Shown here one piece after another: positions 22,301 through 63,407 of a stretch of 64,000 nucleotides of DNA (position 1 is the stretch's first letter; each line of letters begins with the position of its first letter). A program made the translations under genes and the position numbers. A model generated the notes under the pieces. That model ran no database searches and had not been told where the DNA came from. It was given only the letters and a program-made list of their open reading frames with translations. This stretch comes from Paraspadella gotoi. Taxonomy: Eukaryota > Animalia > Chaetognatha. The stretch is from the NCBI GenBank assembly GCA_051294375.1, contig CM119265.1, positions 14,252,124 through 14,316,123 of the forward strand, given 5' to 3'.

Positions 22301-25300
22301 AGAGACAACGTTGATAACGAACTCGGCGAACCAGAAATTGGGCGAATAAGTCCGTCAACAATGCCCACAAACTCGGTGATGGCTGAAAATCACGTGATTG
22401 ATTCGAAAGAAATCGAATGTGCGACGATAAAAATGAAGTGAGCGCAGTAGCGACTGAAATTGTAGACATTTATTTTCAATATAGGCGTTGTTCTACTCAG
22501 TATGTTCCTTACCGGACTCCACTTCCGAAAAGAAAAAAAAGGTAACTTTACGAGTAAACAATCAATATTAAAAAGATCAGAAAAGGGTTATCTTTCCTAT
22601 AACTTACTAATTGGATACTTTGTCTTGGACTTAGAAACAACTGACGAAAAGAAAAAGAAAAAAGAGCAGGAAAATCAAAATAAAAAGTTGAAAATACTTT
22701 CAGATGCGCCGGTACAAATAATCTGTGATGGCGGATCTCTCCTAAAATATAATGCTTGAAAATTTATCCTCCAGAACCCCACTTATACGAAGGCGGAACC
22801 GGATTACCGACGTCCCAACAGCGGACCTTTAAATGAGCGAATTTGGCAAACGTTTTTTTCCATTCGTCAAAACATATCTTGCCTGGAGGATGAAATCAGA
22901 CGCGCCGCGGATTAAACAGCTTTTGTGGTTATGATACATTTGAATGAATATAAACCTTGTTCCTGTCTTGGATAAACTCACAAAGAGAAGCATGCGAGTT
23001 ATTAACACCTAGTATTTACCTGAAGAAGAAATGAAGCGCCGTGTGAAACGAGGGCGTCTCTCTCCATCTCGCCGAAACGTATGCCGCCACCTACTTTACG
23101 TCCCTTCACCGGTTGTCGGGTAATACTGTCGATCGGACCGGTAGTTCGAACCTTGAAGTTAGGTGATGATAGTATTTACATAAAACGCACTTTACTATAT
23201 GAAATTGGTACAACCAATATATAAATTATCCATTCATCTAATAAATAAGCTATCTTGCCCTTGACTTTGGACAGGCTTTGGTGGTTTAAGGCCTCCATCA
23301 CTCTTACAAGATAATGACATCGCAGGTCGCTGCAAGCTTTCAATCAAGACACACAACCAGTGCCAGAGTACCTGAAGTGGTATAATATTTTAAAGAATGT
23401 TTCAATTGTATGAAAAGACCCCTTTCTTAAGTATTAGATCGGGTAATACAATATTGTACTCCACACTAGCATCAAAATACAAGGAGCTGAATTTTATGTA
23501 AATGTTACAACTAATATAAAAATTATCCATTCGTTTAATAAATAATAATTATATAATTCAAGGTATTAGCAAGAGGAAAAAAAAGATCTGACCTGATATT
23601 TGTCGGAAACCATGTGTCTAAGTCTTTGGTAGTAAACGACTCCGATGAAGATCTCAGCGGTGAGCATCTGCCCCCCTATCCCGGAATACATTGTCTCCGT
23701 TCCATAATAATCGAATCCAGCTCGGCGCAAAAGTTCCCCGTGGTACTCGTGCGCAGGTCTAGATTCAGAAAACGCATCGGAAAACGGGGAAGCGTCTTCG
23801 GGTACGCCGGAAACGGCCACGCTTTTACCGGCCATGCTTTCCAGCATCATGCCGATCGTCATCCGAGATGGATAGCCGTGGGGATTGAAGATGATGTCAG
23901 GCACGACACCGCTCTCGCAGAAGGGCATGTCCTAGAAACAAGACGGATAAAAGAATAAAATGACAATTAGTCTAAATAAATAGATTAAAAATCAGAATTA
24001 TGCTACTTCCAGACCTGATGAGGATAGCGCAAGGAGCAAACCCCCTTCTGTCCATGGCGCGAGGCGAACTTATCGCCTATGATAGGGTGACGCACAAAAC
24101 GGAGCGTCAAACATGCGCGCGCGAAACCGTCGGAACTGTGTTCGCTTTGAAGCGCCTTGAAAAATAAGAACATGAAAGAGACCCCATGACAGAATTTTCT
24201 ATTTGAATTACCTTTATCTGTTCTACAAATGCGTTTTCGCTTTTGTTGAATCTCTTAACAATGGGCGTTTGAGGTTCGTTTACGCTCACGTAAGAGTACA
24301 TAGGGTCGCCGTGTTTTAATTCAGTTCCCAATGGAGGAAACCCGTCTGCTTCCAGACCAGGAAACTTTTCCGGGTCGGGATTTCCGAAAACGTATGGAAA
24401 TTTGGAGACCCATCGACGCTCGCCGGTAACGTCGCGAAGATCAATAATTTCACTTTTGTAGATGTAGCCCCAACAGAAACCTCGCTCGAAGCTACCTAAA
24501 AACGCAAATAGAAAGGGGAAACGAAAAAAATAGAAAATTTAACTTTTTTCCAAATCTCACTAGCTGTATTTTATTAAAATATAATGAGCAACATTCTAGG
24601 GAATGCAACTAAAAACAGACGGGTCACCAATTTAAAAACAATTTTAGAGACTTAACTTATGCAAAGCTTTATAAATTTAAGTTGCATCCTGGGTCCGCCC
24701 GCTCTTATGGAATATATTTGGGTCTTTATTACCTGAAAATCGCATATGGATTAAAACCAAGAACATTTTTGGAATCCCTTTGGTCTTAGATTAATCGATA
24801 TTTTATAATATTTATAGGACAATAGCCTAATTATAATTAATATTGTAACATGATATTTCTTTTTTCTTTCCGCGAGAATAGAAGATTATCACGGCTTAGT
24901 AAAACTTTGCATCAAGGTAAGTTAGTTATTATTATTATTGTTGTTATTATTATTATTGTTATTATTATTATTATCATCTCTATTTTTTGTCTTTTACATT
25001 ATTGACGTTTATCGTCAAAAGTTTTTTTTTTAAGGGCTTTAATCCGTACGGATACCCAGATTAACCCATTAATTTACTAACTTACGTAGTAATTTGTATG
25101 TTTTGTTTAAGTTATTACAACCGTTTGAAATTTTTTTAAAAAAGTATTAGTGCCGTGACCTTAACCTAGAGTCAAGCAATCTCTCTCTCTCACATCCCTC
25201 TCTCTCTCACTCTTTCTCTCTCATTGTCTCGCTGAAGAAGGCTAAGATTTTGCATAAAAAGAGCAAAAAAATGTTTCTCTTTAAAATGACAGGGAACAGA

Positions 25301-28300
25301 ACATTTTATTTATAATTATAAAAAGTTAATTCCGCTTAACCACCTCCAACATTAATTGATTTTTTTATGTTTTGTTCTGTTTTTTGTTATTACAATTTTT
25401 TGTAAGTTGTCATGGTTTTGAATATTTTGTGTAGGGTCTTTTGAGCCATCTGGTACAAGAATATTCACTGTTTTCAAACATTCTAAAATTTTAACTAACC
25501 TTTATTGATTATCATAGCGTCTTCCATATCGTAACCTGTGTACGAAATCACGGCAACAACAGCATTAGTGCCCATCGGATAATTATCCATTTGGTAGTAA
25601 TCGTAGACTCTGGGTCTGACGAAGGGCGTTTGAGGAGTCATCAAGCGGTAAAGCTTATTGTCAGCACGCTGTGGATAAGAGTAGGCGGGCGTCGCCATAG
25701 TCTGCTTTCCCATCTGACACTGATACATGTTTCTTGGACTTTGATTAAAGTCAGAAAAAGGAGTGAGGTTCGCGATAACAGAAAGCATGTTTGTTTTTGA
25801 GAGCTCCAAGTGGGTTGTCTGGCCCGGCGAGATTTCCGTAGAATCGACGGCCACGTTGAGATAAACCTGATAGTCAAATAGAGGAAAGGAAAAGGAGAGT
25901 TAAAGGGAATTGGAAAGAAATGAAATAAAATGAGATAAAACCTGTTCAAATGATCCGATCCATTCGACGGAATTCGCTGAAAGGTTCTTCACCGGCCGCA
26001 TCATTCTCGCTGGACTACAAAAAGAAAAAAAACATTTCTATTTTTTAATTGCGCCGCGAGTACTCGCGGAGCAAATCACTAAGTCACTTTTCGGTCGGTC
26101 GGTCTGTCCCACTTCTTTTAAAAATACACAACTCGCCTATAGTTAATTTATCATTTGTTAAGACAGGAATAAATCTTATATTTAAGTGACTGCTAGCGCT
26201 ATACTTGATTGGCAGGGCGAATGGCAGGATGTTAGAATTTTGCAGGTGGTGCTTTATAATTCGAGCCTCTGTGTATACTTGATTGGCAGGGCGAATGAGG
26301 AGTTAGGAATTTTGCAGGGTGGTGCTTATAATTGAGCCTCTGTGTTATACTTGATTGGCAGGGCGAATGAGGAGTTAGGGAATTTTACAGGGTGGTGCTT
26401 ATAATTCGAGCCTCTGTGTATTAAGGCGTAGTAAAATTTCTAAATTTAACTTTATGTAATTGCATTTTTTGCTTAACTTTTTTGAGCTCTATTAGAATCA
26501 ATTAAAAAACTAAAATATCAAAAGAAATTTTTTAAATATTATATAATTTCAATTTAATTTAATATTACAATTTCATAAAATTCAGTTCCTTGTATTTTGA
26601 TGCTAGTGCGGAGTACAATAAGTATTCCCCGATCTAATACTTAAGGGAGTGGTCTTTTCATACAATTGAAACATTCTTTGAAATATTTTCCACTTCATTA
26701 ATAGGGAGGCCAGGTACTCTGGGAGTAAATAAACGGGACTGTGAGAGAGTCTTGATTGAAAGCTTGCAGGGCTGCTATGTAATTATCTTGTAAGAGTGAT
26801 GGAGGCCTTAAACCACCAGAGCCTGTCCAAAGTCAGGGGCAAGATAGCTTATTTATTAAATGAATGGATAATTTTTATATTGGTTGTACCAATTTCATAA
26901 CAAAATATAATTTTAATTAGCGAATTATTCATGTTTAGAACATTTTTTCAAAAAAATATTTTTAACACTATAACTAATACCAATAATGGATTTGTTTAAT
27001 ACTGTTCCCATTAAAATTTGAATTTGGTTGGCTACCGCTACCAATAGCTACAAATAGGACGATCGAGGTGATTTTCAATATTTTACCCCTGAGCTATGAT
27101 ACAGCGCCATGGAGGGTCCACCCAGGGGGGCAAACTATGACCAAAATTTATTTTTAAAAAAGACAATTTTTTTTGTAGGATCATTTGCATTAACATTTAA
27201 CTTTGTAGAAAAATCATTTTAAAACAAATTTTCAAAAATTTAAATTGATTTTTCTTCTTTTGAATATTGTTAGTTCATCATTTTAGATCTAATTTTTGCT
27301 CCCCTAACGAAAGCTAGCATGAACCTATGTTCATGATCCTAGAATATAAAGCAAAAATTGGTTTTTCATAATAATAGATTTACTTTTCGGGACAAATAAA
27401 CGTTTCTGTAACTGTTCGGGATAAAAAGTTAAACAAAATTTTAAAAAAAAAAATTTATTCAATTTTTGCTTACCTGAGATGACCTATTAGGGACCCATAT
27501 CTCGTCAGGTCAATTTTCAAAATCCTCTCGATATTCCCATTTCTATTGCCCTATAGTTAGTTCATACAAATTTTTTTCAATGTCGGTCAAGTAGTTTGAT
27601 CGGAANNNNNNNNNNNNNNNNNNNNNNNNNNNNNNNNNNNNNNNNNNNNNNNNNNNNNNNNNNNNNNNNNNNNNNNNNNNNNNNNNNNNNNNNNNNNNNN
27701 NNNNNNNNNNNNNNNNNNNNNNNNNNNNNNNNNNNNNNNNNNNNNNNNNNNNNNNNNNNNNNNNNNNNNNNNNNNNNNNNNNNNNNNNNNNNNNNNNNNN
27801 NNNNNNNNNNNNNNNNNNNNNNNNNNNNNNNNNNNNNNNNNNNNNNNNNNNNNNNNNNNNNNNNNNNNNNNNNNNNNNNNNNNNNNNNNNNNNNNNNNNN
27901 NNNNNNNNNNNNNNNNNNNNNNNNNNNNNNNNNNNNNNNNNNNNNNNNNNNNNNNNNNNNNNNNNNNNNNNNNNNNNNNNNNNNNNNNNNNNNNNNNNNN
28001 NNNNNNNNNNNNNNNNNNNNNNNNNNNNNNNNNNNNNNNNNNNNNNNNNNNNNNNNNNNNNNNNNNNNNNNNNNNNNNNNNNNNNNNNNNNNNNNNNNNN
28101 NNNNNNNATTACAACTTTTTAAAATTTTGATATTTTATTACTGAAAATGAGCAAAAACTATTAAAATCATTGGATGATGATAATGATAAAAATAATTTTT
28201 TCAGGTTTTTCTTAATTTTGACCTACTTATCATAAAAAAATATTGAAAAAAGAATTATACTGTGTAGATAACTATTTATAAGCTATCCGAATCTGCTTTT

Positions 28301-32799: not shown

Positions 32800-32950
32800 T
32801 TAAAGTGGGATGGACTGGGTAATGGCAAAGCCGCCGATAGGCACGGGCCCTCTGCCAGATCCAAAGCTCTGGACTAAATAAACATGCAGTCTTCAGATAT
32901 TTCCCTGTCAACACGAGGTGACACCGTTTCGTGTGGGGCGCCCTTTGAAT
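32800..32950 (+). mobile_element. Partial LTR of family B, with the twister-like fold, just upstream of POLR1B
   Basis: gccagatccaaagctctggact..aacatgc and cacgaggtgacaccg..gtgtggggcgccct match the reverse complement of 59160-59290. Confidence 0.75.
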
Positions 32951-46200: not shown

Positions 46201-49200
46201 CTACGAACGCCCCTTTGAGTGAAAATTATAAGAATTCTATCGAGGCGATGGTACCTGGTGCAGATTCTGTGCAAGAATCGGGAACAGTTGAGGTTGTCGA
46301 TGTTCAACAATCTCTCAAATTAGTCGACCATGAAAAATCGTCAGGGTGTTTTGAAAAATTTGTAAGTCTTGTCAGCCATGATAAATCTACAAAAGAGGTC
46401 GATGTCAAAGATTTTCCTTCTTTGATGGAAAAACTTCATTTACCTGCTGATATATTAAAAGAATCTCGTCGCAAGGAAAATGATTTTGAAAGAGAATCCA
46501 ATCCGGATTCAATTAACAGTAGTGAAAAGATTATATTTGATAAACAGAAAGATGAACGTCAGTGTCTTAAAATAGTTGACAAAACGCTTCATAAATTTTC
46601 AACTTTTCCCGATAACACCGAGCAAAATTTACAAGAAAATTCTGGTTTATCAAGCCCAAATACTTTTGGAATGCTAAAGAAAGGAACTGAAAGAAGTCCG
46701 GTCATCACTTATGTTAATATAAGTGAAAATATTTCACCTTTCAATGAAACATCGAGAAAACGGGTAATTGACACACCAAAATTAAGTTTGGGCTATCACT
46801 CTCAACTTTATTTGCCGTCTCAACTGACACTTACAAAACCAATTCAAAATGTAAACCTAAAAACTCCAGCGGGTGATGAAATCCAGTTAATTCAAGTTTC
46901 CTCTTCCTCTGAAGGAGTTAAGCACGGACCATCTCCACTAAAAAAGTTAAAAACAATCGATAATATTACTCTCACTAGAAATCAAAATATGAGGCTATCA
47001 GTCGTAAAATCTGCTCTAAAAAAGTTAGAAGGATACATAAAAAACTTAAAAACAGATGATTTTGATATAAATGGCTTTAACATCAGTTCAAAGTTTAGAA
47101 CTCAGAGAAGATCATTAAGAGGAAGTGGAGAGGATTTAGCCTGGTCCCGAGAATTATCAATGGGGAAAAAAGTACTAGTTAATAAAACTGAATCCGAAAT
47201 GATTCCAGGTGTAGCTAATGATGCTAAATCAAAGTTGCCCCCTGATTTGCTAACGGTTACCGACAAAGTGCTTAAGCAACATTTTAAACCGTTAATAGTA
47301 GCAAATCTAGAGGCGAAAGACCCTAACATTTGCGCTCACGCTAAAAAAATATCTCTTTCACAGGTGCCCGAGCTTTTAACATTGAACTTGAAACCACCGG
47401 ATGAACCCGATAAAAACCCGAGCGAAAATCTCGGTAATTCTGCGGATTCAAGAAATAAATCAGAAGGCTTTTATTGCAAACTCTGCCCGTTTTCTGTTTC
47501 TACTAAAACTGATATTCTTGCGCACCTAGTTAATGTTCATCACAATTCTCCTTCTTCGGAATTTATTTTTTTGGGGGACTCTGTTGATAAATTTGATAAA
47601 AAATCTGTCGCAGCGACATTATCAGTTCTCCCCAAGAGTAAATCATGTAAGCGAAAAGTAGCTGAATCGCCAAGTTTCGATGAAGGTGATATAAAGAATG
47701 TTTTTGAAGGTACGGTCAAGGATCCCTTTGTTAAGCTGATAAGATTGCACAATGAAGAAAATTCCGAAAAGCAAACGCCTGTTATTAAGGATTCGAGCGG
47801 CTTATCCGATTTTATTTCTAAAAAGCAAGAAAGAAATCGAAGCTGCCAGAATCAACAAGATACCAAAGCATTCATGGAAAAGGAAAGGTTAGCTAGTCAT
47901 TGGGAAGATACCAGCTGTGATGAAATACTCGGCTCGCTCCCTAAATTCGGGGTGAGGGTTTGCCCTAGAATTCGACCGGCATCTAAGTTAGGGACTCCGA
48001 GTAGTTCAGTTGGCCGACTCGCCGCATCTGATATTTCGCGTAACGTTCTACCTAATTTGGGCACGCGAGTTCGACAAAAAGATTCTTCAAACCAAACTGT
48101 TGAGTTAAAATTTCTTCGCGCAAACGCATCTTCTGTTATAAGTGACGAATCCTTAAAGGCAAATTCTACAGTAGACGCAACTCATGAGACTACTAAAAAG
48201 AAACCTCCGGATCAAATCGTCGCGTCAACCTTCGCTCCGAACGTGCCTGGGATTACACCCCTGGAACCAACAAGGCATGTCAGAATTTGGAATTGTAGTG
48301 CTGTTAAAATTGTTTTGAGTTCAGATTTTCAAATTATTTTTTTTAAATTCTCATACCAGAATAAATAAGTAGTCTTCTGTTCCCAAACGTAATTTGAATT
48401 GAATTGAAATGTTTAAAATCGTAAAGAAGACATGGACGGTGATAAGTATAAACTGAAGAGACAGTAATTATTGATATGTGTTTGGATCAGGCTGTAACAC
48501 CATGTTACAGGCGGGTTTAGCGCCCTGTCCCTCTTAACTGCGAGGCGACCACTGGGCTAGAACACCAGACCTTTGGGTTGGGAGGCGAATGACTTGCCTC
48601 CGGCACCAATGGCCGATGATGAACGGTTGGTTGATTTAAGTCCACCATACATTCCCCCCTCTGTTGCGTCTCTTCAGTGAATTGTTGTTGGTGGAAAGTT
48701 CGTCACCAAGTTGAGGCATGTCGCCTGATGTGTTGTTGGCGGAAATATCATCGCCAGGTTGAGGCATGTCGCCTGAAAGTGTTGTTGTTGCTGTTGTTTG
48801 GAAGTCGGGCTCACCAATGAAGAGACAGTAATTATTGATATGTGTTAATGACAGAACCGTTCATTATATTTATAAGCAGTCCCTGAGCTTTGAATCAGGC
48901 TGTAACACCATGTTACAGGCGGGTTAAGCGCCCGGTCCCTCTTAACTGCTAGGCGACCACCGGGCTAGAAGGGTTGGGAGGCGAATGACTTGCCTCCGGC
49001 ACCAATGGCCGCTGATGAACGGTTGGTGGATTTTAGTCCACCATGAAACATTAATTGTATTTTAATTATGGAAAGGCAGTGCGAATGCAAAAAACGTTAT
49101 TTTTTATCAAATATAAGTCGTCTTCAGTGGAAAAGCGTTAGGAAGAATTGTTTATTCGTTCCAAATTGTCACTTAAAAAAGAAGTTGAAATGTTTGGCAA

Positions 49201-52200
49201 AAATATCGCTTCTTGTCCTCGAACTGCCACTCCATAATGGAAATACAATCTAGAGCTTATTTATTTTTTCTCAGTATTCTAATTTTTATAAAAAAATCCT
49301 AATGTTATGGCAACATTTGGATTGCCTGTGATGCCCATTGGGATGGGGCATCTCACTGTTGGCTTTGGGGGCTACAGACCCTCAGTGACGCTACCTGTCA
49401 CTGGCGCGGTTACACTAGGACGGTCTCGCTTTGCCAACCCAGAGGGAAGTCGTTAGGAATGTGAATGGAACGTAATACTTGGGATGGTACGGTTCCCCCT
49501 CTGAGCACATGGGATTGGCTGAACGATGGTGTGAATATACCGCCACAATGTTATCAAAAAAATGACCAAAAATAAGAGAGGTTGATTAAAGACTAAAGGC
49601 TATTTTCAAATTATCTCTTGGTTTCCTCTCTCTGTCTAACAACTAAAAATTAAAACTAACACAAATATATCTGTATTTTTATAGAAAGTCCAAGAGACGC
49701 GCTTCCCTTGGCTCCAAAACTGATGCCTCATCGGCGGAATGCGCCTCCGAAAACGAAGCTGTGGCAAAACGCCCTCGAAGAACGTCACGGATTAGTTTAC
49801 CGACCGAAAAAATGCGAGACAATCTCCAATCGCGAAGGAGCTTGACGCTGATCGATACATCCGGCGGAAGGAGAGCACGAATTACTGGGAACATGAATGA
49901 TTGCCTGGTTGGCTCTTCGACTCCCTCGAAAACTGACTCTGATAGACAGTCTCGATCAAAGAAAACGTCGTTAGAATCCCAAAGCACAATGGGCGAGACG
50001 AAGTAAGTACATTTTGTAGCGCTGGCCACTGGTCACTGGTCAGGCACGATGAACTCATGAAGTTTTTAGTCGGATCTGCTTATAAGCAGATCCCGAATCT
50101 ATAATTCACTTTGTCGGTCCGTCGGTCCGCCCCCTCAATCTTGTCGGGCATTAACTTATTTAAAGTCAGAACATCGAATTTTGATAAATTATGCAAAAAA
50201 AACTATGTCCGTCCGTCCGTCCCACCTTAACAAAAAACACCAATTACTCGTGATTGGATGGATGGATTGGAATAAAATTTTGTATGTGGTTAGGGAAGTG
50301 TGTGATTGAGCAGGATATGATGTTTCGATGGAATCGTCCGAGTGGAAATGAGTTTAAATGGAAAAAACAAGAAAATATATTTCATTATTTGAACACTAAT
50401 TACTCATGAGTGGATGGGGCAATTGACCTGAAATTTTGTATGTGGGTAGGAAAGTGTGTGATTAAGTTGGAAATCAAGTTTCGATGGAATCGTTTGAGTG
50501 GAAATGAGTTTAAATGGAAAAAAACAAAAAAACTGTTGATTATGCTTCTTTTTCCTTGTAAATGTATAAATTAATTAATTAATTAATTATTATTTGCTCA
50601 GACTTGTTTTTCTCTGGGCGGAAATAATTAAATAATTTAAAACGAAAAAGGAAAAAAAAAATGTTTGTAATAAATCAGTGTAGCTCGTTGCAATATATTT
50701 TTCAAGTATTTTTTGCTGCTTCATCTCCTAAATTTTTTACCCCTAGAACGACGCTGCTATCATCCGTCCGCACGGCGTTCGATAAGATTATGGACGTATC
50801 AAAACGAGTTCCACAACACGATTGGCAGGAGGATTTTGAGTTCTCCCCCTCTGCAGATCTGTCTTCAACGAGGCCGGCTACCCTCGGGGATCCGGCGGAT
50901 AGTGGGATTGGGGGATTCCACGTTTTCGTTGAAGACGCGGAGGGGGAGGATGTCACCGCAGAATTCCCCGCCATAATCAACGCTGGGTCATCTCCTTCCG
51001 GCGTCGACTTGCAGGTGTATCCAGTGCTTGTACGTCACGTGACACCAATCTTTAGTTTTCCGAAGCGTCCTAGTTATCTATCTGGGAAACTAAATAACTT
51101 CCCTCTTGAAAACTCGAAAAAAATCAGTACAACGGAGTCTCCCTCGTCCGCTGTTTTCAAAATGCTCCATCGAGATTTGGAGTTCCACATCGAGGACGAA
51201 ATTAAGATTTCAGCATACGAAGGGCTGACAGAGATCAGTCAAAAACCCGTCGACCCCATAGATGCTATATTTAGATCGGAGGCGGAGGATACAATTGAAA
51301 AGGAAACCGATGAGTTAAAGAACGGCGAAAAAGAAGAAATATTATATCGAAATACTGAAGATTTTAATTTCGGAATCTTTGACCGCTCCTGGAAGAAGAA
51401 GAATGAGGAAAAATTATTTGGACAGAATTCTTTGAATGGGAGTGACCAAAATTATCTTTCATCACGACTTGATAACTCTCGTGAAGGAAAAGAGAAATCG
51501 TCCGATACGATGGTTAATCTTGAGTCGACTATTGCGGAAAACGGTGCAGAAAAAATGACTTGCAAAGGAATCGTGGGAAAATGCAAGAGGTAAGTAAGCA
51601 TGTAAACCTTTATTACTTAAAAAAATAGTCACGGCATTATGTTTAATGAGATTATTTAATGTCGTATGGAATTTTAGGTAAATCTTTCGCTTAAAAAGAA
51701 AATTCGTTTTCCTCTAGCTATTTCGCAAAATGCATAATCCCATCCCAAACAGATTAATAATATTATATTTAAATATTTAACACAAAAATATTTTAAAAAA
51801 TAAATGAAATCATAAATAATAGTTATTTTAAATCTAAATTTAAAAAGAAATAAATAAAAAAATAACTAAATAAATAAATAAAAAAAGATAGTAAAACAAG
51901 TAATTTTGCAACTTTCATAACTTTCATCTCTCATATCTCTACACTCTACAGGTTACGTTGGAACAATGCAAAGCTTCCCCGCCAGAAGTGCCTGTATTGT
52001 GATGAACGTAAATTAAAATCTCGATTATGGAAGCATATTCAAAAGGTTCATCCCGCATTGGCACGAAGTCCCCCTTGTGGTTTTCCAAAGAGCAGAAAGG
52101 TTATTTCAAGCCCCCGTGTCGACAAATGTACGTTTGACTTTTGTGACGTCCTGGATAATTGTGCTAATATTGATACGCATTGGAATTATCTCAACAGGTT

Positions 52201-54470
52201 GGTTTTTAAAAGGAAAATTGAATAAGCTTCGGCTTCCCTAAGACGATTGATTCATTCCTCTTAGAATTATAATCGGTTAATTTTATTTTCTGATTGTATT
52301 TTAGGAACCAAAAAAGAAAGAAAAAGAGTTCAAATTGGGAAGAAACCATGTTTAATTATCAGCGGCTTCAAACATCGCTCTTTGCCTATCAACCTGTACC
52401 TGTTGACGAATGCGAAAAAAAATTTCAATCAAAAAATTGTTCAAACGTTTATATGCGACAATATGCTGGTAGGATTATTTAAATACATGGGCACAATTTG
52501 AAATCCGTCGCTAAAATCTATTAATCGAAAACATATTTTGAAAAAAGATGTTTAAAGGCAAGACTAGCTTATTTTCTAAACAGAAATATCTTGTTATTCG
52601 GTTAACATTTGTTTTGGCAGTGAAAGCATTGATTTAAAAATTGTTACCCTAACTCGATCGCATATAATAACGCTTGCGACGATTTTGTGACGATGGACCC
52701 CATAAATGGCGTCTTCGTCGTTTGAGGCGTTCCAAATTATAGATATTTTTTTTTAAAAATTATTTGTAATTGTATGAAGCTGAAAATTTTAGATATATAT
52801 TCTCATCATCAAGCTGCTTGAAAAACTTATACATAAAAATGAATTAACTGCAGGTCCAGCTCTAATCAAGTGCTTACAGCACAAAGATGGTTTATGATAA
52901 AAGAAAAGCGAAACTATATTTTGAAATAAGTCTAATTTCTCTTTCCAAACGTCTCGAATCAAACAGCAACTTCTGTAATTGAGACGTTTTGCATAACATC
53001 ATTTTTTTTGCATCGTTCCGTAACAAAATTTTATAAAATTTTGGCGAAAATCAAGATAAACCGCGCAGTTTTTTTGACTGCAATTCTCCCGATTAATTAA
53101 AATGTAGGACTGAGAATCAGAATGTCCCACGCATCCCCTATAGAACTGTCAATTTTCTAACAGCGGCTATAGTAGAGCCAAACTTCGTCAATGGGGTGGG
53201 TCAGAAGTTTGATTTGGGAACCTTTCCAAATGAAACTTCATACATTTCTGAGAAAACTTTCAATGGAGCAAAATTTTCTAAAATGGCAAGAAGCATTAGT
53301 AATTAATTTTTTAATATTTATTTATAGATAGGAAATGTCAAAAATTTTTTTTTATTTTTAAAAGCAGATTCAAATTGCTTATGAAAAGTTATCTACACAA
53401 AGTATAATTCTTTTTTCAATATTTTGATAATAAGTGGGTTAAATTTGAGAAAAACCTTAAAAAATCATCATCATCATCCGATGATTTTAGCAGTTTTTAC
53501 TAATTTTTAGTAATAAAACATCAAAATTTTAAAAAGTTGTAATTATATTTTTTGCTTAACTTTTTAAGCTCTATCAGAATCAATTAAAAAAACTTAAAAT
53601 ATCTAAAAAAAATTTTTGATATTATATAGCGATATAATAATATTAATTAGCGAATTACTCAGTTCGAAACATTTTTGCAAAAAAATATTTTAACACAATA
53701 ATTAATACTAATAATGGATTAGTTTAATTCTGTTCCCATTAAAATTTGAATTTGGTCGGCTACCGCTAGCTATAGTGGTAGGAATGATAGCATTCCCAAT
53801 GGGCGCGGTTGCAAAAGCATGCGCCGCCTTCTCTAGACACTTTTGAAGGTCATGGTTGCTCAAGGTAAATTTCTTTAATAGATTGATTTTTATATGTATA
53901 CCAATTTTTATACCATTCAAACGATTTTTTGACTTTAGTCCCAAAAAAGCTGGACCTCCCTGTAGAAATTTCCTCTTGTAAAATATTAAAATCTATTTGC
54001 GTTTTAGTTTTGCAAATTTTTTTTAGCGGCGAGTTTCAAATGTATAATTGTTTAAAATTTCATTCTTTGAACGCGTATATAATATATAGTATATACTGAA
54101 TAGCGTAAATTAATTTTGATCTTAGGTCTGGCGTATCATTGTAAGAATTGTGACGCCGTTTTCCGCAATTACCTTGGTTTTAACCGACATCGACTAACTA
54201 TTCATCGCCTCGACAACAATTTGAAATGCCCACAATGCCCGTATGAAACCACTAAAAACGCCAAACTCAAGCATCAGATTAGCTTTATACATAGTAAAAT
54301 TAGGTATTTATATTTATTCGTTATTAAAAATATTAATTTAATCATGCTCTTCTAGAATGCATCGCTTATTTTTCTTATACAGCAACGCACCGTGTACACT
54401 TTGTTCCAACTGGTTCAACGCACGTTTAATCTTGGCTTATTCAAGAAAGATCTGCCATAGTAAAAGTTGA
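37278..54470 (+). CDS. Very large (~3,549 aa), mostly disordered protein with an N-terminal RG/RGG region and ~8 dispersed C2H2/C2HC-like zinc fingers; 12 coding exons
   Basis: Exons 37278-38347, 38528-38658, 38946-39074, 40505-40584, 40649-40794, 41018-48274, 49685-50002, 50747-51589, 51952-52197, 52305-52468, 54126-54303, 54383-54470 are all phase-consistent (10,650 nt). Fingers include CRLCTAEFNKKEELKMHIETSH, CKLCPFSVSTKTDILAHLVNVH, CLYC...HIQKVH and CKNC...HRLTIH. Confidence 0.85.
48454..49050 (-). mobile_element. Miniature non-coding LTR retroelement (TRIM/retrozyme-like), family A, in a zinc-finger gene intron
   Basis: 5' LTR 49050-48818 and 3' LTR 48651-48454, both TG...CA. PBS TGGTGAGCCCGAC (48816-48804) directly after the 5' LTR and PPT AGAGGGGGGAA directly before the 3' LTR. 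The ~165-bp internal region has a 2 x 47-bp repeat. Confidence 0.85.
48875..48950 (-). ncRNA. Twister-like ribozyme fold (P5-type permutation) in the family A 5' LTR
   Basis: AGCAGU...UAA CCC GCC UGUAAC/GUUACA G CCUGA UUCAAAGC UCAGG G ACUGCU. Confidence 0.55.
49308..49547 (-). mobile_element. Solo LTR, family C (240 bp)
   Basis: TG...CA termini; perfect 6-bp TSD ATGTTA (49302-49307 / 49548-49553); GC-rich and hairpin-rich. Confidence 0.8.
49358..49438 (-). ncRNA. Twister-like ribozyme fold (P5-type permutation) in the family C solo LTR
   Basis: GUUGGC aaa GCGA GA CCG uccuagug UAA CCGC GCC AGUGAC/GUCACU G AGGG UCUGUAGC CCCC aaa GCCAAC. Confidence 0.6.
50063..50740. mobile_element. Helentron-associated (HINE/DINE-like) non-autonomous element with an internal 2 x ~148-bp repeat; a related short element lies at ~26040-26200
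   Basis: Inserted in a T-run; 5' hairpin ggatctgcttataagcagatcc; (GTCC/GTCG)n microsatellite; tandem duplication at 50241-50530. Confidence 0.45.
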
Positions 54471-56789
54471 GGCCTCGAGGCAAGGCCGCGACTGCGACTT
54501 ACGCGACGCAAGATTTCGTCGTTTCTCTATTTTTTCTGTCGTCATTAAAGAAGCTATGATGTATAGAAGCGATGTATTTAAAAATATGAAGAAACTGGCC
54601 GAGCGTTTGCTCAGAAACTATGAATTTTGTTTTAAATCAGATTGACTCATCCTTTTTGTTTTTTAATTTTCTTATGCCAATTTTTGTATTTCCTTGTTTC
54701 TGTACAAAAGGTGATGAGTTTGTTTTTGTTGACAATGTGTACATATTTTCTCCTCTTTACCAGTCTCAAAATATTCGATGTATTATGCGTTGTTCTTTGC
54801 TTTTATTAAATGTGTGATTATCAATTATGTTTAATAACTCGCTGGAAAATAAAACCAGTGCGAAACGAATTTACTCGTTTTCAATTTCTTGAAGAATTTT
54901 AATCTTGTTGAAATTCGCATAAAGGATATAAGGCCAAGTGGTAGTTAGTGACAATTAAGTGTAGAACCTTTTTCGAAGTGCCTTTATTAGATGGATGCAA
55001 CAAACTCTAGCATTGTATCCTTGATCTCCACCATGTTCTCGCATTGCACGTGTATAGATGCGTTATTGATTGTTTGTAGTACTTAATAGATTTTATTTAT
55101 CTTCATAGAGAACAATGCATAATGCTTCTTCAATGTAACGTTATGATTGTATGTGACTATCAAACTCGTGTTTCGCATAAATCTTGTCTTTCAGGTTAAC
55201 ATCTTTAAGAAACGAATATGATTTCCTAAAAACAAATGGACGTTTTGAAATAATAAATCAGAGCCAGGGGAAAAATTAATTGCCATTCCCTCAGTCGTGA
55301 CCGGTTGGATCATTGAGTAAAGTGACTACGAGGCACTAGGTGCAATCTAAACTCAGTACTTGCTCTACGGGAAGCGTGAGGACGGCCGTAAACACCCTTG
55401 CGGGCGTGGGAAACTCTTTGGCTACTAGTCATGTTCAGCCCATTTATGGCTTTATCCCCTTATATGGCGTCGTCGTCCTTTCATTTCCTTTGCATTTTTA
55501 TTTTATATAAAAGCCGGGCCAGAATTTAACATTTTTTACAATATAAAACGGTCTGCCGTTAATGTCTTTTTTCCTTATACAGCTGATACAATTTATTTTA
55601 ATATTTAACAATATAGTATAAGAAATTGTTTAACATTTTTTTAAAACGGATTCTGATAGATCAAAAAGTTAAATAAATCATAATATTTTTATATTTTTAA
55701 ACATAAAAAATCCTTTAAATTTTTATCAGAATTTAATAAAAAAAAAACAATTAAATAACAAAATTTTATATTATGTATTTCATATTATACATATACAATC
55801 ATGAACATTTATACATGCATATTAAGGCCGGCCAAAATTGAACATATATATATACTCTTTTCAAAAATATTTCTTTTTTCCTTCTATTACTAAATCGATT
55901 TTTCAATGCAACTTTTTTGAATTAGTTCATTGGGTTTGCACTGAAGCTTTTAAATATTTATTAATATATAACAAATGACAAAAATTTAAAAAAAGCTTTT
56001 GCCCATAAGTGGCGTCGTCGTTGCGTGCGGCGTTCCAAATTATAGATCGCCTTTTTTATGATTAAATTTTTGGTGTATGAAGCTGAAAATTTATATACAG
56101 CTTCTCATCATCGATGTGCTTAAAATTGAGTCTGGACAGTTATTAAATATGTTTTGTTTACGTTTTATCAAAACAAACAATTTCTCTTTTATTTTCATAT
56201 TTCTTTCTCTCTCTCTTTTCTCTTTTAATTACATGTCTCTCTCCCTCTCTCTCTTTTCCTAATCACTGATGTCATAATCATAGGGAAAAAACGAGTCTGT
56301 AACTGTAACTTTAATTTTCTTCGGTACCTTATTTTTTATTAAAATCGTAAATAGAATTTTTTTTTTCTGTTTATTAAATTTATTTTTTTCTCAAATTTTT
56401 TTTTCATCAAAATTTTTTCTCAAGGCTGGTCTGCTGATCAGTTTATTTACAATGACAATTGACAAGGACAAAAAAAAACTTTCTTTCTGTTTATAAATAA
56501 TTTCTTTTTCTCAAATTTTATTTTTTTTTAGTATTAAAATTTGTCGTCAATTCAGATTTATTCCTATGCGATTGCGACGATCCTTATGCTTTTAAGATTT
56601 TTTTTTTCTCTCTCTCTCCCTCACTCACTTTCACCATTTCAAAATCAACTTACTTCCCATTTTTCCTGTCCTTAACTTCACCTGTCCTCACATCTGACCA
56701 CTGTTCTTTCTCAATTCTTTGTTGGAAAGTGTTTCTATCTCTCTCTCTCTCTCCTCTTTACTTAAAAATGTGAAAAATTGTCTATTATC

Positions 56790-56836
56790 AAACGCTGATG
56801 AAGACTCGCAAAGTAAGAGTCAAAACATGTCCGTTT
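56790..56836 (+). ncRNA. Minimal type I hammerhead ribozyme (Penelope-type) with an inactivating G12A change
   Basis: AAACG CTGATGA A GACTC gcaaagtaa GAGTC AAAAC AT GTC CGTTT: stems I and II perfect, palindromic stem III, GAAA changed to AAAA. Confidence 0.7.
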
Positions 56837-58770
56837 TTCTGTTATTAAATTCGCTAAGAAAAATATTTATAAAAAGTATAGCTCTTTTTAAAAAGTTATC
56901 GATTGGTGAAAAAAAAAATAATTGGTTCAGGCATTAGAATACAGCAATATTTTAAAGTCCGAGTCTGAAAACGGAATTGAGAAAAAATTATTTTTGGATG
57001 TTAGGTTAATATTATTTTTTTTTTATTGATGATAAAAGATTGTTTTTCTATATAGTTTCTTATTTTAATTTGATTGAGGTCAAAAATGGTTGACACCTAT
57101 CCCTACAGATATTCTAAGCTGAATTTGTTTAGTCAATTTCATGTTATAAACATTTTATAATAGGGAAAAGTTATTGACTCTTGTTGACTAAAAAATAGAA
57201 ACTAATTTTTTTTTTCCGCAAGAGTTTTTGTACCAATCGATTTTGACGTTCTATAACTTTCGAACGCTTTTCTCGATTTTATTGGGACTTGGACCAATTG
57301 CTTCATCTTTTAATAATAGGGGTAGCCCCACTCAATGGAGTGAATCAAAAATTTAGAATGATTATATGCTCAAACGAAAATTTATACATTTTTAAGTATA
57401 CTTTCAATGGACAAAACATTTCTTATGTGGCTATAAACCCAAATAATTAATTTTTTAATATTTATTTATAAATAGGAAAGGCCAAAATTTATTTTTAATA
57501 ATTTTTAAATTTTAAGACCAGATTTAGATAGCTCATAAAAAGTTGTCTACACAAAGTATAATTCTTTTTTCAATATTTTCATGATAAGGGAGTCAAAAAT
57601 AAAAAAAACTGTAAAAAATCATCATCATCATCTTTCGATGATTTTATAATTTTTTTTATATTTTCACATAGAAAACGTAAGAATTTTTAAAAGCTGTAAT
57701 TATTTCTTATTTAACTTTTAATGCTCTATCAGAATCCATCCAAAAATTTTAAGATTTCAAAAAAAATTTTTATAATGTTATAAAGGACAAGTTTAAGGGG
57801 ACCCAGTGATAAAAATGATATCATAAGCTTAAGGGTCTATCATCAAAAGGAATTTGAATGTAATAGTCATTAATCTTTTTTGGTGCACGGGAAGTGGCAA
57901 AAAAAATTTCCTATCTCTTATTGTAGCAGAACAAAAATTTAATAATTATGAAAAAAAAAATTAGTTGACCCTACCTTAAATATTATATAATCCATTATTT
58001 TATTTTTGCATTAGAAAGTATTTTTTACTAAATTCCAATTTTTTATTTTACTGTACAAAGCTAATAATTAGTTTAAGCCTCATTGAAACAAAAGGCTTTA
58101 CAAGACTAATATTTTTATATTTTTATATTTACTTAAAGCAGACAAATCAAACCTAAATTCTATTCTTACAGAAACAAACTGTAATAATTAATAATTATAT
58201 TCATATTCATCCCTTAAATGAGTATAATTATAACTATATTGATTTCCTAATTAATAACAATTTAAAATTTAGCAAACAGTACAGAATCTTTCTCTTCTTT
58301 TATATTTATCATTACTTCAAAGCAGTTTTTATTTTTATCCAATATAACCAGAATCACTTTGAAAAAAGAAAGTTTAAATAAAAATTCAGTCTTATTACCT
58401 AATTTTGATTCGATCCTAGTTTTTATTTCTTAATAACATTTTTAGTTGATTAAAAGCTGAAAATCTTTTTTAAAATTAGATCTTACGCCTTTTTTTGGAA
58501 AAAAAATTTAAACTTTGAAAAAGATTTTCTTCTTACGATTTTTAAAGAAATTAAGCTCCGCTGATTTTATCGAATTTTTTAACTACTTTCTCAAATGATT
58601 ATAGAAGAAAAAAATTATATGATCAGAACCAGCTTAAGTTAAAGGGTCAAGACGTTATGTTTTCAGGCTTTTACCCCCCCTGTTCAACTTGGTCCCTTAA
58701 GAAGGCCTGGTTTTACAGGGCGCCACACCCACACACGGTGTCACCTCGGGCAACAGCGAGACAGCATGTT

Positions 58771-58852
58771 CATGTAGTCGCAGAGCTTTGGATCTGGAGT
58801 AGGCCCTTTGGCTACAGGCGGGTTAACCCGGTCATTTTCCACTTTCTACATG
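58771..58852 (-). ncRNA. Twister-like fold in the family B 3' LTR
   Basis: CAUGUAG aaa GUGG...UAA CCC GCC [hairpin] CCAGA UCCAAAGC UCUG..CUACAUG. Confidence 0.5.
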
Positions 58853-59215
58853 ACAACCTCAGGGCTCGAACAGGGACGCACAATTGGGATGGTGCATTAG
58901 TCCACTGAGGCGCTGCGAAAGAAACAGTTTTAATCCATCTGCGGTGATAAGACCACCAGACAGCTGCCCCCAGGACTCTCACATATGAGAGTACGAAGCA
59001 GGGGATGAAGTGCATGTCTCTCCACTGAACCTCTCTTCATTCTGGTGGTCTATGCGGAGTGGCAGCTGCGTAGCTCAAACCACATCAATGGCAGAGGAGT
59101 ATTATCATGCCCAGTTTGCGTGTTCGGATCACGTCGGGCTCACCATTGAGGCTGGTTTTACAGGGCGCCACACCCACAGCGGTGTCACCTCGTGGCAACA
59201 GCGAGACAGCATGTT

Positions 59216-59294
59216 CATGTAGTCCAGACCTTTGGATCTGGCAGTAGGCCCTTGCCTACAGGCGGGTTACCCGGTCCATTCTACTTTCTACATG
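59216..59294 (-). ncRNA. Twister-like fold in the family B 5' LTR
   Basis: CAUGUAG aaa GUAG AA UGG accggg UAA CCC GCC uGUAGGC/GCCUACu G CCAGA UCCAAAGG UCUGG a CUACAUG. Confidence 0.55.
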
Positions 59295-62200
59295 ACAACC
59301 TCAGGGCTCGAACCAGGGACGCACATTGGGATGGTGCATTAGTCCACTGAGGCGCTGCGAAAGAAACAGCTTTAATCCATCTGTGGTGATAGGACCACTA
59401 TAAAGTAATATTTAATATTTAATCCATCTGTGGTGATAGGACCACCATAAAGTAATATTTAATATTTAATCAAGAGGAGTAATATAAATTTTTTTTTGAA
59501 AATGATTGTTTAAATATTTAGTCAAGACAAAAATACTTTGCTAATAGTCGAAATTTTATATTATCTCTGGAGTTGGTCCCTATCAATAAGCATTGTTTTA
59601 AGTTTCTATATCTTAGTAGAATTCAGCCATTCAATACGGTTTTTTCGATGTTAAAAAGTGTCTTTTTTTTTCGCCTCAGTGTAAAGCATCAGTAAAAGTC
59701 ATGACGCTCTGGGTGAAGTACTGATACTTAGCTCACTTTTATGAAATAAACACTAATAAGTATTCAATAAGTAGCCATTGACAACACAAAAAAGCCCCAA
59801 TTTAACCNNNNNNNNNNNNNNNNNNNNNNNNNTTTCAGATATAACGATTGAGAACTTACTAAACCTTATCATTAATATTATAAAAAATAAATATTATTTT
59901 ACGGTTAAATGCGACGGAGCCTTTTGTGTTGTCAATGGCTAAACTTAAAGTGAGCCTAGAAGTATCAGTACCTTAAAAACCTTCATGCCTATTATTAATA
60001 AGTTTGAATTAGGTATAATATTTTGCGGCTGATTAAAACTTAGCAAAGCTATGGTTTCTGCAGAATTGCCGCGGGTAAAGCAAATGTTTTCTTAATTCAT
60101 ATAGGCAATTTCTGAATCAAAATATATCTGCTATTATTATTTTTTAACAGATAAATAAAACAATATTATTCTCATTTATTTGATTGTTACATTCGTTATC
60201 AACATATATTTTCAATTTGTCTTATTACTTATATTTTAAGCCCAAAAATACTTTTCCCAGAAGGTTGTTGTATGAAATATGATTATCAATAGTACCTAGC
60301 CATGGCCATTTATTCTGTAATCTACTTGAGCTACTTACCAGAAACACAGAACCAATAAAATTATTTAACGGAAGATTATTCATTGATATTAATCTAATTA
60401 ATTCCATTAATTAACAGATAGTTAAAGAAATTAGTATTAACAATGAGGATGGCATACATTAAAAGAGATTTGCACATAGTACGTATTCAGTTGTATCATC
60501 TGATATGATTGACAAGATTAAAACTCGCATCAAAGATGACTGTAACAATTGTAACAAGTCGCCCAAAATATTTTGTTATCTTATTTAGAATGGCAAAGTT
60601 ATTAGCAATTCTTTGCCAGAATATGATAAGGAGTTACTCAAATACCTCCCCAAGTCTGATTATATTAAAAAATTCGAGCCAAATAATATATCATCTACTA
60701 TCATTTTAATATATTCTTATTGGTTGTTCTTTCTATTTGTCCTTATGTTTTTAAGATTTTGGAGAGAGAAAAACAATTTCTTTAACAACAACGACTTTAT
60801 TCACGATATAATAAACAACATGTTTCGGACTTTTAATTTTAAATCTTTCATCAGGGTGCGGCCTTATTTAATCTTTGATAATACATAATTTTTTGTTCTC
60901 CACAAGTAATAACAGCACCACTGAGAAGGCATGGACGGCGAAAGAGAGAGCAGAGGAGAGAGAAATACAATGCTTTCTTCTATAACAAAGAAATAAGAAA
61001 ATAGACAGTGGTGCAGTTTTGGGATAGCGGTAGTTTGAGCAGACGAGAGGAGAAGGTTAGGTGAGGAAAAAAAAATTAAATTTGGGCAGAAGAAAGAGAG
61101 AGAGAGCAATGCAAGAGAGTCAAATATAGCATCCAATACATTATACATTCTATACATTATTCATCTTCTTTCTCTCTTTGTCACAATTTCAAATTTCTTT
61201 TTCCTCACCACCATTCTTTCTCCTCTGCTCAAACTATACCCATATCCTCACAAACTCGGACAACTGTCATTTTTTTTTTTAAATTCTGTGAAAACATATT
61301 ATTCTCTCTCTCTCTCTCTTCCCTCCATCCCTTTCACTGTTTATTGCTGAAACAAAAAAATTGATTGTACTATAAAACTTAAAAATAGCACTGATAAAGA
61401 CTTTGCCAATTAAATCGCAAACATTTATGTTTAATCTAATAAAAAAAACGTTGTTGTTAAATGTTTTTTTCTCTAAAATCGCAAAATAGTTGTCTTACTA
61501 TTATTTTCATCATTAACAAAGATTTAATGTAAATAAAAAATGACATCTGTTTGAACATCTTGAAAAATGTTATCTCTATTAAAAACAACATATAATGGAC
61601 CCAACCCCTGCTCACCAAAGCTGAGTTAAATTGATAAATATTTTTAGCTAATTAATTTTATTTTTACAAAAATCTATTTGTCTTTCATTACAAGTATTCG
61701 AAAAATATTTGGGCCTAAAACTTATTGCATCTTCAACTGTTGAGCAAATAAAGATCTTTAATATGTTATATTTGCATAAAGATTTTGTTTTAAAATTAAT
61801 ACCCGAAAAAAAACTTATCCTATTGTTTTTTTTACTTTTAAATTATACATTTTGATAATATTTGGCTTTTAAATTATTGAAGAAATATTTCCCTTTTTAA
61901 ATCTTAGCCAATTAGATCATAAGTTTGTCAGTTATATCTCTAGTTTAAAGCTCTGTTTCCCTTAATTAAAAATTCCCGTACTCTTACTTATTCAGTTAAC
62001 TACTAGGGTAAACCAAAAAATTGTCTCCATTACTATTTAGAAAAAAATTTTGCTCTAAGATTCACCGGCTATTATGATGCTTTTACACTGAGGCGAAAAA
62101 AAAGACAACTTCTTAACATCGAAAAAACCGTATTGGCATAGACGCTGAATATCTACTAAGAATATAGAAACTTAATAACAATGCTATATTGATAGGACCA

Positions 62201-63407
62201 ACTCCCGTAAAATTGTACATTAGCAAAGCTATTATTTATAATATTTCGACTATTAGAAAAAAAAAAAAAAAAATATATTTCTTAATAAATATCTAATCAA
62301 TCATCTTTCAAAAACAAATTTATATTACCTCCTCTTGATCTATTAATATTCTATGCCATCACCAGATGGACTAAAAATTAATTACTCTCTCTATGGTGCG
62401 TCCCTATCACCACAGATGGCATTAAACGCTGATTTCTTTCGCAGCCGCCTCAGTGGACTAATGCACCATCCCAATGTCGCTCCGCTGGTTCGACCCTGAG
62501 GTTGTCAATGCAGAAAGTAGAATGCGCCGAGCAGTAACCCGCCCTGTTAGGCCAAGGGCCTACTGCCGATCAAAAGCTCTGGACAATAGAGAACATGCTG
62601 TTCGCGTTGGCCAGAGGTGAAAGCCTGTGTTGCGTGCATGTCGCTTGGCCTCCGCTCCGTCCTAGCTAAAACCTGAGTCCTCAATATCGCCGAGTTCGGA
62701 GGCGTGGGATGGCCGGACAGTTGCCGATCCGAACACGCAAAACTGGGTAGAGGGGGGGTCAGGGGCGAAAGGAGATGCATAATACTCCTTCTGCCATTGT
62801 ATGTGGTTGAGCTTTACGCCAGCTGCCACCTTCCCGCATAGAGGACCAAGCCAGCCAATAGAAGGATGAGCGTTGCAGGTGTTTTCCGTACGAGTTGACA
62901 TCGCACAGGCGTGTCATCCCCGTCTTTGGAATACATGTGTAGCTTCGCGCTCTCGTCATGTGAGAGATTCTCGGAGGGAGGACTCCCGCGCTCTGGCGCG
63001 CTCTCTAATTCACCGCCAGATGCGCATTAAAACGGTTTTTCATTTCGCCCAGTATACGCGACGCCTTCGCATCTCCTAGGCCGTAAAGTGACACCAAAGG
63101 GCCATTCCCAAAATCTGCGCCTATGACGTCGCCCTGCTCTCCGGTTCCGACCTTGAAGGTTGTCTAATTGCTAGACAAACATTGGGAATGCGAAACAAAA
63201 AAAACCTCGTGGAGGAAATCACCAAAGCCTGTCCAAGTTCTACCCGCCTGTAAAGAAAGGAAGTGGCAAGATAGCTTACTTACTAAATGAATAGATAATT
63301 TTTATATAGGTCCTGTACCAATGTCATTATAAAAACTAAAGCATCAGCGTTGTTCGTAAATCGCCAGTAGTTCCCGCAATACGTCGTGCGCCTCACTAGC
63401 TAATCGG

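Follow-up and report, generated by a model that had tools for sequence, protein, structure and literature searches.

Miniature LTR elements with a conserved twister-like fold: candidate retrozyme-like elements in a 64,000-nt stretch of probably animal DNA

Retrozymes bearing long terminal repeats (LTRs) have been described mainly from plants, and those described from animals have no LTRs, no primer-binding site (PBS) and no polypurine tract (PPT) (PMC4918200; PMC7761336; bioRxiv 10.64898/2026.07.22.740005). Reviews up to 2026 assign hammerheads to both groups. The LTR forms have been proposed to have taken their ribozyme from Penelope-like elements (PMC5680766). T-variant twisters are carried by Perere-3, an RTE element of Schistosoma mansoni, and share with the motifs described below an animal-retroelement setting and a weak P1 (PMC8501958). 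In the 64,000-nt stretch of DNA analyzed here (the window, meaning the whole stretch), three families of miniature LTR elements, A, B, and C, were found to carry a conserved twister-like fold in their LTRs, and a fourth family, D, to carry a related motif in a unit without LTRs. On balance, A, B, and C are best read as animal LTR retrozyme-like elements with a twister in place of the hammerhead.

The layout of A and B is that of plant LTR retrozymes, namely LTR-PBS-interior-PPT-LTR, non-coding, with a small motif of the self-cleaving type in each LTR (PMC4918200). The elements and their parts were located as follows.

48454..49050, minus strand: element of family A, with two LTRs around a non-coding interior of 166 nt
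48818..49050, minus strand: A 5' LTR, ending in CTCTTCA, its 5' end altered in the window copy
48804..48816, minus strand: A PBS of the tRNA-Trp type, beginning 1 nt past the LTR
48652..48662, minus strand: A PPT, abutting the TG of the 3' LTR
48454..48651, minus strand: A 3' LTR, with a deletion that truncates the ribozyme motif within L4 in the window copy; predicted site 48518/48517
58700..59402, minus strand: family B element, two LTRs and a ~185-nt non-coding interior
59113..59145, minus strand: B PBS, complement of the tRNA-Trp 3' end over ~30 nt (27/30 positions)
58963..58971, minus strand: B G-rich PPT-like tract before the TG of the 3' LTR, weaker than the A tract
49308..49547, minus strand: solo LTR of family C, beginning TG and ending CA, between the two copies (49302-07 and 49548-53) of a perfect 6-bp duplication, ATGTTA
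32802..32944, plus strand: diverged B LTR fragment, GUGG-GA-UGG intact
62358..63215 (end approximate), plus strand: another full B element, rich in errors, whose 3' LTR passes into family D inside the ribozyme

No open reading frame (ORF) of 120 codons or more was present inside any element, and no helper reverse transcriptase or integrase was found among the ten window ORFs scanned. The initial annotation had described these as non-autonomous, Trp-primed elements, which is borne out by the LTRs, PBS, PPT, and non-coding interiors of A and B. It had also described three dissimilar LTR families, and this has to be revised: A and B have an identical 13-nt PBS, similar LTR ends and 43 of 85 motif columns invariant, and by sequence they are sister families, C being more distant. 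The second B element and family D are additions to what had been listed. The 5' end of the first B element is disrupted by a 47-nt duplication (59371-59464). The tRNA-Trp match of the B primer site, at ~30 nt, extends far beyond the usual PBS length of 18 nt, and the site is possibly, to judge from its sequence, a captured tRNA 3' half. This match was counted by eye, with the CCA complement included, against the human tRNA-Trp probe printed in PMC5737633.

Copies elsewhere were surveyed in contigs from other sequencing runs, aligned at 80% likeness and with the depth summed; contig depth is not copy number, and it was taken to mean no more than that the copies are numerous and dispersed, with an excess of solo LTRs. 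The summed depth was ~1e5-7e5 across most of A and C, versus 40-80 in most flank bins, and ~1e5 over the B LTR versus 3e3-1.5e4 over the B interior (ratio ~10). The ends of A were sharp: at positions 48818 and 49044 the element was left by 144 and 151 contigs of run X1, which passed into unlike AT-rich flanks. Run X6, tagged 'RNA?', was treated as DNA, its tables being near-identical to those of the DNA run X5. The three families consist of miniature LTR elements that are multicopy, non-coding and dispersed, with an apparent excess of solo LTRs. Separately, contigs of 1.4-2.0 kb at high depth (X6 record 22, X8 record 32) included part of the C LTR, and these are possibly a longer element or a helper using that LTR.

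The folds and the hairpins next to them were placed as follows.

48875..48950, minus strand: A 5' twister-like fold, with P5, P2 (3 bp plus a bulge), T2, P3, and P4; GA at 48937-36
48935-33, 48932-27 and 48894-87, minus strand: T1b, palindrome GGCGCU and L4 of the same fold; predicted cut 48926/48925
59216..59294, minus strand: B 5' twister-like fold, GA at 59280-79, T1b UGG at 59278-76, linker ACCGGG at 59275-70; predicted cut 59269/59268
49358..49438, minus strand: C twister-like fold, GA at 49425-24, palindromic linker at 49420-13; predicted cut 49412/49411
58771..58852, minus strand: damaged ribozyme copy of the B 3' LTR; predicted site 58825/58824
48953..49012, minus strand: stable hairpin on the 5' side of the A ribozyme, z -3.7
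59297..59353, minus strand: hairpin on the 5' side of the B ribozyme, z -2.8; its loop is CAUCCCAAU, and it has the B-box-like GTTCGAGCC at 59313-05

The order in the LTR folds was P5a - AAA/UAA - P2b - GA - T1b - linker - UAA - P2a - T2a - P3 - P4 - U NNN AA NN - P4 - P5b, on the same strand as the sense of the PBS and PPT. The type-P5 twister (Rfam RF02684; PMC5408937) has in common with it the order P5-P2b-GA-T1b-(P1)-UAA-P2a-T2a-P3-P4-L4 and a U-NNN-AA-NN loop, together with T1, T2, the general-base G, and the acid A. Both A and B have the motif in each LTR, the A 3' copy being the one truncated in the window. The helices, loops, and motifs cited in the initial annotation were found where it had put them on the minus strand, including the intact GUGG-GA-UGG of the diverged B fragment, and P5, P3, and P4 pair as it had written; overall, the modeled pairs of the window copies were Watson-Crick in 23/26 cases for the A 5' LTR, 25/28 for the B 5' LTR and 22/24 for C. 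U^AA in L1, with the conserved A+1 and A+2, was present in the A and B 5' LTRs, in C and in the first D unit, and the loop U-NNN-A-A-NN in all families. The general-base G followed by A was observed in the window copies of A, C, and D and was missing from the B 5' window copy. P4 comprised 5, 5, 3, and 4 bp in A, B, C, and D, respectively, with an L4-closing pair of A-U in A and B and of G-C in C and D; in A, B, and D, P2 comprised 3 bp, with a single base bulging from the P2b strand, and in C it had 3/4 pairs. With Rfam, no hammerhead was detected in the LTRs; its one match, of 14 bits and antisense, fell in the B interior and is attributable to chance.

A loose descriptor of the fold yielded 1, 2, 30, and 174 matches with 0, 1, 2, and 3 defects, versus 0.15, 3.2, 28.6, and 155 in 40 shuffles, and does not separate A, B, and C from the background. 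With a strict descriptor, written after the motifs had been seen, 12 matches with three defects or fewer were obtained, where 89 shuffles averaged 0.73 in total. The A and B 5' LTRs and C had three defects each (such matches averaged 0.62 in the 89 shuffles), and the others were six matches in a TA repeat, one in family D and two more.

Stronger evidence than that of the descriptors came from the family-majority letters. The fold registers had been fixed in writing before the contig comparison, and that record gave T1 as failing in A and as 2/3 in C. In run X1, the majority letters were unlike the window copy at 48934, 48893, and 48891 of A (99, 99, and 93% of depth), at 49376 and 49374 of C (99%) and at 59280, 59282, and 59229 of B (~100%), and the general-base G at B 59280 accounted for 100% of the contig depth. 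Within the three motifs, 14 majority changes were counted: eight restored a pair or a conserved letter, six were neutral (five in the P3 loop and one in the linker) and none was breaking, an outcome with a probability of ~1e-7 under random placement. This count covers the complete B table and 40 of the 88 variants of A and C; one neutral change, 48910, was the majority in just 2/4 runs. With the majority letters, the Watson-Crick pairs reached 26/26 in A, 27/28 in B and 23/24 in C, and the conserved letters 8/8 in each. T1 covaries, being 3/3 Watson-Crick at the family level as CCG/CGG (A), CCA/UGG (B) and CGG/CCG (C), and fully paired in D as well; T2 was GC/GC in A, in B (again at the family level) and in C, and AC/GU in D.

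Most copies elsewhere carry the pairing or conserved letter, and these weak points of the window copies are private damage. The imperfect T1 and P2 of which the initial annotation had warned are true of the window copies, but the T1 flaws in A and C and the P2 flaw in B belong to those copies alone. Its twister fold gained from the comparison, since the family letters restore T1 in A and C and the general-base G, P2, and T2 in B. The pattern of flaws in A, B, and C follows the same split as that of the CHiTA twisters, which are sensitive to pseudoknot/T2 and catalytic-letter flaws and tolerant in P1, P2, and P4 (PMC11662667). We consider it very probable that the twister fold is under selection.

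Family D provided a related motif in another setting, in the following units.

26567..26899, plus strand: D unit, without PBS, PPT or TG..CA
26784-26846, plus strand: D twister, 0 descriptor defects, T1 CCA/UGG, T2 AC/GU, palindrome AGGCCU; predicted cut 26809/26810
23198..23545, minus strand: second D unit, 1.17 monomers, lying sense-oriented in an RNA polymerase gene of the Rpb2 family, within an intron

Further D sequences were short 3'-end fragments. The D core is like that of A, B, and C but without P3, and it gave the sole Rfam twister match (Twister-P5, 25.6 bits, E 0.002, local); a strict match with no defects, as in D, occurred in 0/89 shuffles. Relative to A and B, both T2 (AC/GU) and the first P2 pair (A-U) of D are compensatory. 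Its copies showed a fixed 3' end, varied 5' ends, 1.0-1.2 monomers, partial tandem arrangement, and TA-rich targets, a sequence pattern that fits a Penelope-type or Naiad tail. No reverse transcriptase or endonuclease was found linked to D. Naiads are described without canonical hammerheads (PMC8557442), and the D layout resembles that of animal non-LTR retrozymes (PMC7229834; PMC7761336). The unit at 23198-23545 (minus strand), between two Rpb2-family exons, retained all conserved ribozyme letters with one P4 mismatch. At 63150-63334, the 3' LTR of the noisy B copy gives way to D sequence; the change-over falls inside the ribozyme core, close to the shared GA-UGG and to the cut site. This junction could be a template switch, a ligation product or an assembly error.

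At the P1 position, a palindrome was observed in all four families: GGCGCU in A, ACCGGG in B, AGGCCU in D and, in C, an 8-nt linker centered on CUAG, so that the cores (GCGC, CCGG, GGCC, and CUAG) all differ. No hairpin forms within the linker of A, B, C or D, and the inner pairs cannot close on one strand. The initial annotation had called P1 minimal or absent, but the position is better read as a conserved palindrome. The self-pairing of the linkers of A, B, and D amounted to -8.1 to -9.1 kcal/mol, above 95-99.5% of random hexamers; that of the C window linker was -3.4 kcal/mol, and the family change at 49414 lengthens its palindrome. A central palindrome arises by chance with a probability of 0.06-0.08 each, and in 4/4 with ~2e-5 to 5e-5 if the families are independent. 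The perfect palindrome was lost in the diverged B fragment (32802..32944). In amphibian retrozymes, hammerheads with one pair and a palindromic tetraloop cut well only as dimers, and these motifs that need two copies are the nearest precedent for the palindromes described here (PMC7229834). No natural dimer-dependent twister was found in the literature covered, which leaves most subscription papers outside. The palindrome replacing P1 in four families is new here and suggests cleavage as a two-copy dimer; we hold dimer dependence to be about as likely as not. Dimer pairing could also relieve the hairpin that, in folding models, traps P2a in single A and B motifs.

The mechanism that we propose has as its observed basis the anatomy of the elements, their multicopy spread, and the conserved twister core on the sense strand. 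The twister-like fold would self-cleave at U^AA, at 48926/25 in A, 59269/68 in B and 49412/11 in C, and, to judge from its letters, the LTR fold probably does cleave. The palindrome would pair with the same palindrome of a second copy, giving a double twister from the two LTRs of one transcript; both would be cut jointly, whereas cleavage of a lone LTR within a host transcript would be inefficient. Double cleavage would free a monomer of 408 nt in A (48925-48518) and 444 nt in B (59268-58825), the lengths already given in the initial annotation, and would strip the terminal redundancy; a host ligase would join the 5'-OH and cyclic-phosphate ends. tRNA-Trp would then prime reverse transcription on the circle, and the integrase of a helper retrotransposon would insert full elements and solo LTRs. 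By analogy with plant retrozymes, for which such a cycle has been modeled (PMC4918200), we lean toward a circle cycle of this type, and likewise, for A, B, and C as a whole, toward LTRs whose conserved P5-permuted twister-like fold would release an RNA of 408-444 nt, a predicted circle copied by a helper. Only tentatively do we go further and suggest that these may be the first animal LTR retrozymes, with an obligate double twister of swapped palindromic P1 that confines cutting and circularization to transcripts with both LTRs, silent solo LTRs, and a module captured from a Penelope/Naiad-type tail of which D, present in this very genome, would be a living relative.

A number of results weigh against this reading. 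Even with E values as high as 10 allowed, no twister match was given by Rfam for A, B or C (the damaged window copies were scored), the D score lies below the gathering value of 37.6 bits, and a covariance model trained on three A/B copies missed C and left D at background (7.7 bits). The signs that the initial annotation had named as telling against its fold are thus divided, the Rfam twister models being silent on A, B, and C while GA, T1, and T2 are present at the family level. The canonical P2 of four Watson-Crick pairs is lacking; a change in P2 length may disturb the active site according to a review (PMC5408937), and was without effect in CHiTA (PMC11662667). Energy folding of the window A and B motifs favors a hairpin tying P2a to the T1b/linker strand. 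A and B, as sister families, are not independent observations, and breaking changes in A or C may lie outside the 40 of 88 variants counted. No clean target duplication was found at A or B, whose ends are damaged. Folded as circles, the window monomers (mutated copies; 443 of 444 nt for B) were 54% and 66% paired, no better than shuffled sequence (z of -1.4 and -1.1), and retrozyme RNAs are reported as >70% paired (PMC4918200). Finally, a dimer may be unneeded, as P1 is dispensable in other twisters (PMC5408937; PMC11662667).

Some of these results would suit an active twister that acts at the 5' LTR to trim read-through transcripts at their 5' end, leaving a linear RNA that would go through the usual strand transfers of an LTR element. 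In Schistosoma, Perere-3 has its 5' end processed by twister variants (PMC8501958), the monomer circles are not unusually stable, and no LTR-interior multimer was seen among the listed contig joints, where short contigs could hardly reveal one. However, the 3' LTR has the same motif, and a cut there takes away the repeat on which strand transfer depends; a symmetric dimer would cut both LTR sites. The apparent solo-LTR excess (B depth ratio ~10) is allowed by the circle model (PMC4918200) and is also explained by recombination. We regard such trimming as rather unlikely. It is more doubtful still that the twister cuts as a plain monomer with a P1 of 1-2 bp, the palindrome being a signal for genome dimerization or packaging, or a leftover of the donor. 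Palindromic loops are dimer-initiation signals of retroviral RNA, and the dispensability of P1 agrees with this account, yet D has a palindrome and is no LTR element, and four different palindromes lie exactly at the P1 position. Furthermore, the apparently near-intact sense D motif in the polymerase intron would be easier to tolerate if lone copies cut poorly.

The fold could also be a non-catalytic or vestigial LTR structure, that is, a protein-binding or packaging element or the dead passenger of a Penelope-like tail, as the missing Rfam matches of A, B, and C, the short P2, and the competing hairpins might indicate. A dead passenger is unlikely because all eight catalytic/conserved letters and both pseudoknots were kept in three amplifying families, with T1 changed in compensatory pairs, and we judge the non-catalytic account as a whole to be improbable. 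LTR retrozyme-like elements with a twister remain the reading that we prefer.

Other features of the LTRs were also recorded. A word which we take to be B-box-like precedes the ribozyme by 11 nt in three of the B LTRs (58863-58871, 59305-59313, and 62488-62496), with 5 matches in the window versus 1.24 expected, and no T4 runs were found on the sense strand of A, B or C. Together they are a weak hint, at the sequence level, of transcription by RNA polymerase III; a claim of such transcription was dropped, the absence of T4 runs being too weak to carry it. The idea that the LTRs of A and B contain a tRNA-like module was likewise dropped, with 0 tRNAs from ARAGORN and no Rfam tRNA match. The word CATCCCAA recurs in the B and C LTRs (49338-49345, 49479-49486, 58884-58891, 59326-59333, and 62467-62474), with 6 matches in the window versus 2.0 expected; in B it forms a hairpin loop, is the complement of the catalytic strand GGGAUGG and might serve as an off switch. 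The A interior (48667-48676) forms 10 bp with the 3' end of the LTR (48817-48826) beside the PBS in minimum free energy and centroid folds; B has a similar interior word, to which folding of the window copy gave no support.

Elsewhere in the window, an element of ~190 nt resembling a miniature inverted-repeat transposable element, with terminal inverted repeats, lies between A and C (49055-49248). An open frame of 2452 codons at 41010-48368 (plus strand) is of low complexity, without a Pfam match, and by eye has a zinc-finger-like motif near its end. The window genes are eukaryotic, with TBC, TTC39, IPK, Spo11-type, and Rpb2-family domains. An apparently intronless aspartate aminotransferase was located at 5104-6261 (minus strand), its nine best matches, from environmental or run assemblies, at 63-72%; the species-named ones among the 120 matches listed were all animal, at up to 60%. 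In a quick tree it grouped with those nine (support 99), apart from the named arthropods, molluscs, annelids, and chordates. On this sequence evidence, the host is likely an animal, from a lineage with little annotation.

Regarding novelty, the initial annotation knew of no twister-LTR combination in animals, and no twister within an LTR was found in the literature covered either. The available parts of PMC5680766, PMC6765202, and PMC13725137 do not name a twister-LTR element, and 'twister' occurs 0 times in the main text, as available, of bioRxiv 10.64898/2026.07.22.740005. Exact-pattern relatives amounted to 0 and 7 stretches in two viral-contig scans and to at least 119 stretches in metagenome contigs; among 126 scored stretches, 5 had a full T1 and 1 had T1 and a 3-bp P4, and of the best 25 of the 126 none looked genuine, all being chance matches. 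No primer tRNA gene was found in the viral contigs.

If the proposed reading is true, an animal LTR form based on a twister would show that the retrozyme cycle is convergent and independent of ribozyme class and kingdom, and the twister would have a second role in retroelements besides the 5' trimming of RTE elements. A twister gated by dimer formation would amount to a logic gate of natural origin that takes two copies, and would explain how very many ribozyme-bearing solo LTRs are tolerated. It would also mean that a twister variant with a bulged 3-bp P2 and a palindromic P1 is overlooked by the current Rfam models. Additionally, families A-D permit a direct test of ribozyme capture from Penelope-like elements.

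Compared with the plant LTR retrozymes (PMC4918200), A, B, and C have many solo LTRs in common with them, and in A and B the monomer is likewise set by two cut sites, here predicted. The plant elements carry a type III hammerhead and a tRNA-Met PBS, whereas here a twister-like fold, tRNA-Trp, and a likely animal host are found; their LTRs of 300-400 nt and monomers of ~700 nt contrast with ~200-260 nt and 408-444 nt, their 4-bp target duplication with the 6 bp of family C, and their circles with those only predicted for A and B. The animal non-LTR retrozymes and the Penelope pseudo-LTR hammerheads are likewise short animal retroelements with a ribozyme (PMC7229834; PMC7761336; bioRxiv 10.64898/2026.07.22.740005), but unlike A and B, the non-LTR retrozymes have hammerheads and no LTR, PBS or PPT (PMC7761336; bioRxiv 10.64898/2026.07.22.740005). 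The P3 base of the Perere-3 twister, C-U-G-U-A...U-A-C-U-G, is closely like that of family B, while its P1-type permutation, its occurrence as a single copy placed 5'-terminally in a non-LTR element and its 4-bp P2 set it apart (PMC8501958). The tRNA-Trp primer site of A and B is shared with Ty3/gypsy elements of the CsRn1 clade, whose duplications are of 4 bp, the sole duplication measured here being the 6 bp of C (PMC2582038); by analogy, the Trp PBS suggests a CsRn1-type helper as one candidate, but the duplications left by those elements are of 4 bp.

With respect to the type-P5 twister, the differences are the bulged 3-bp P2 (A, B, and D), the palindromic P1 without room for a loop, the A-U closure of L4 (A and B) and the missing Rfam match (A, B, and C). 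Because they have no hammerhead, 4-bp P2, P1 hairpin or adequate Rfam score, A, B, and C were filed neither among the LTR retrozymes nor among the P5 twisters. In their proposed working, A and B would resemble both an LTR retrozyme and a P5 twister.

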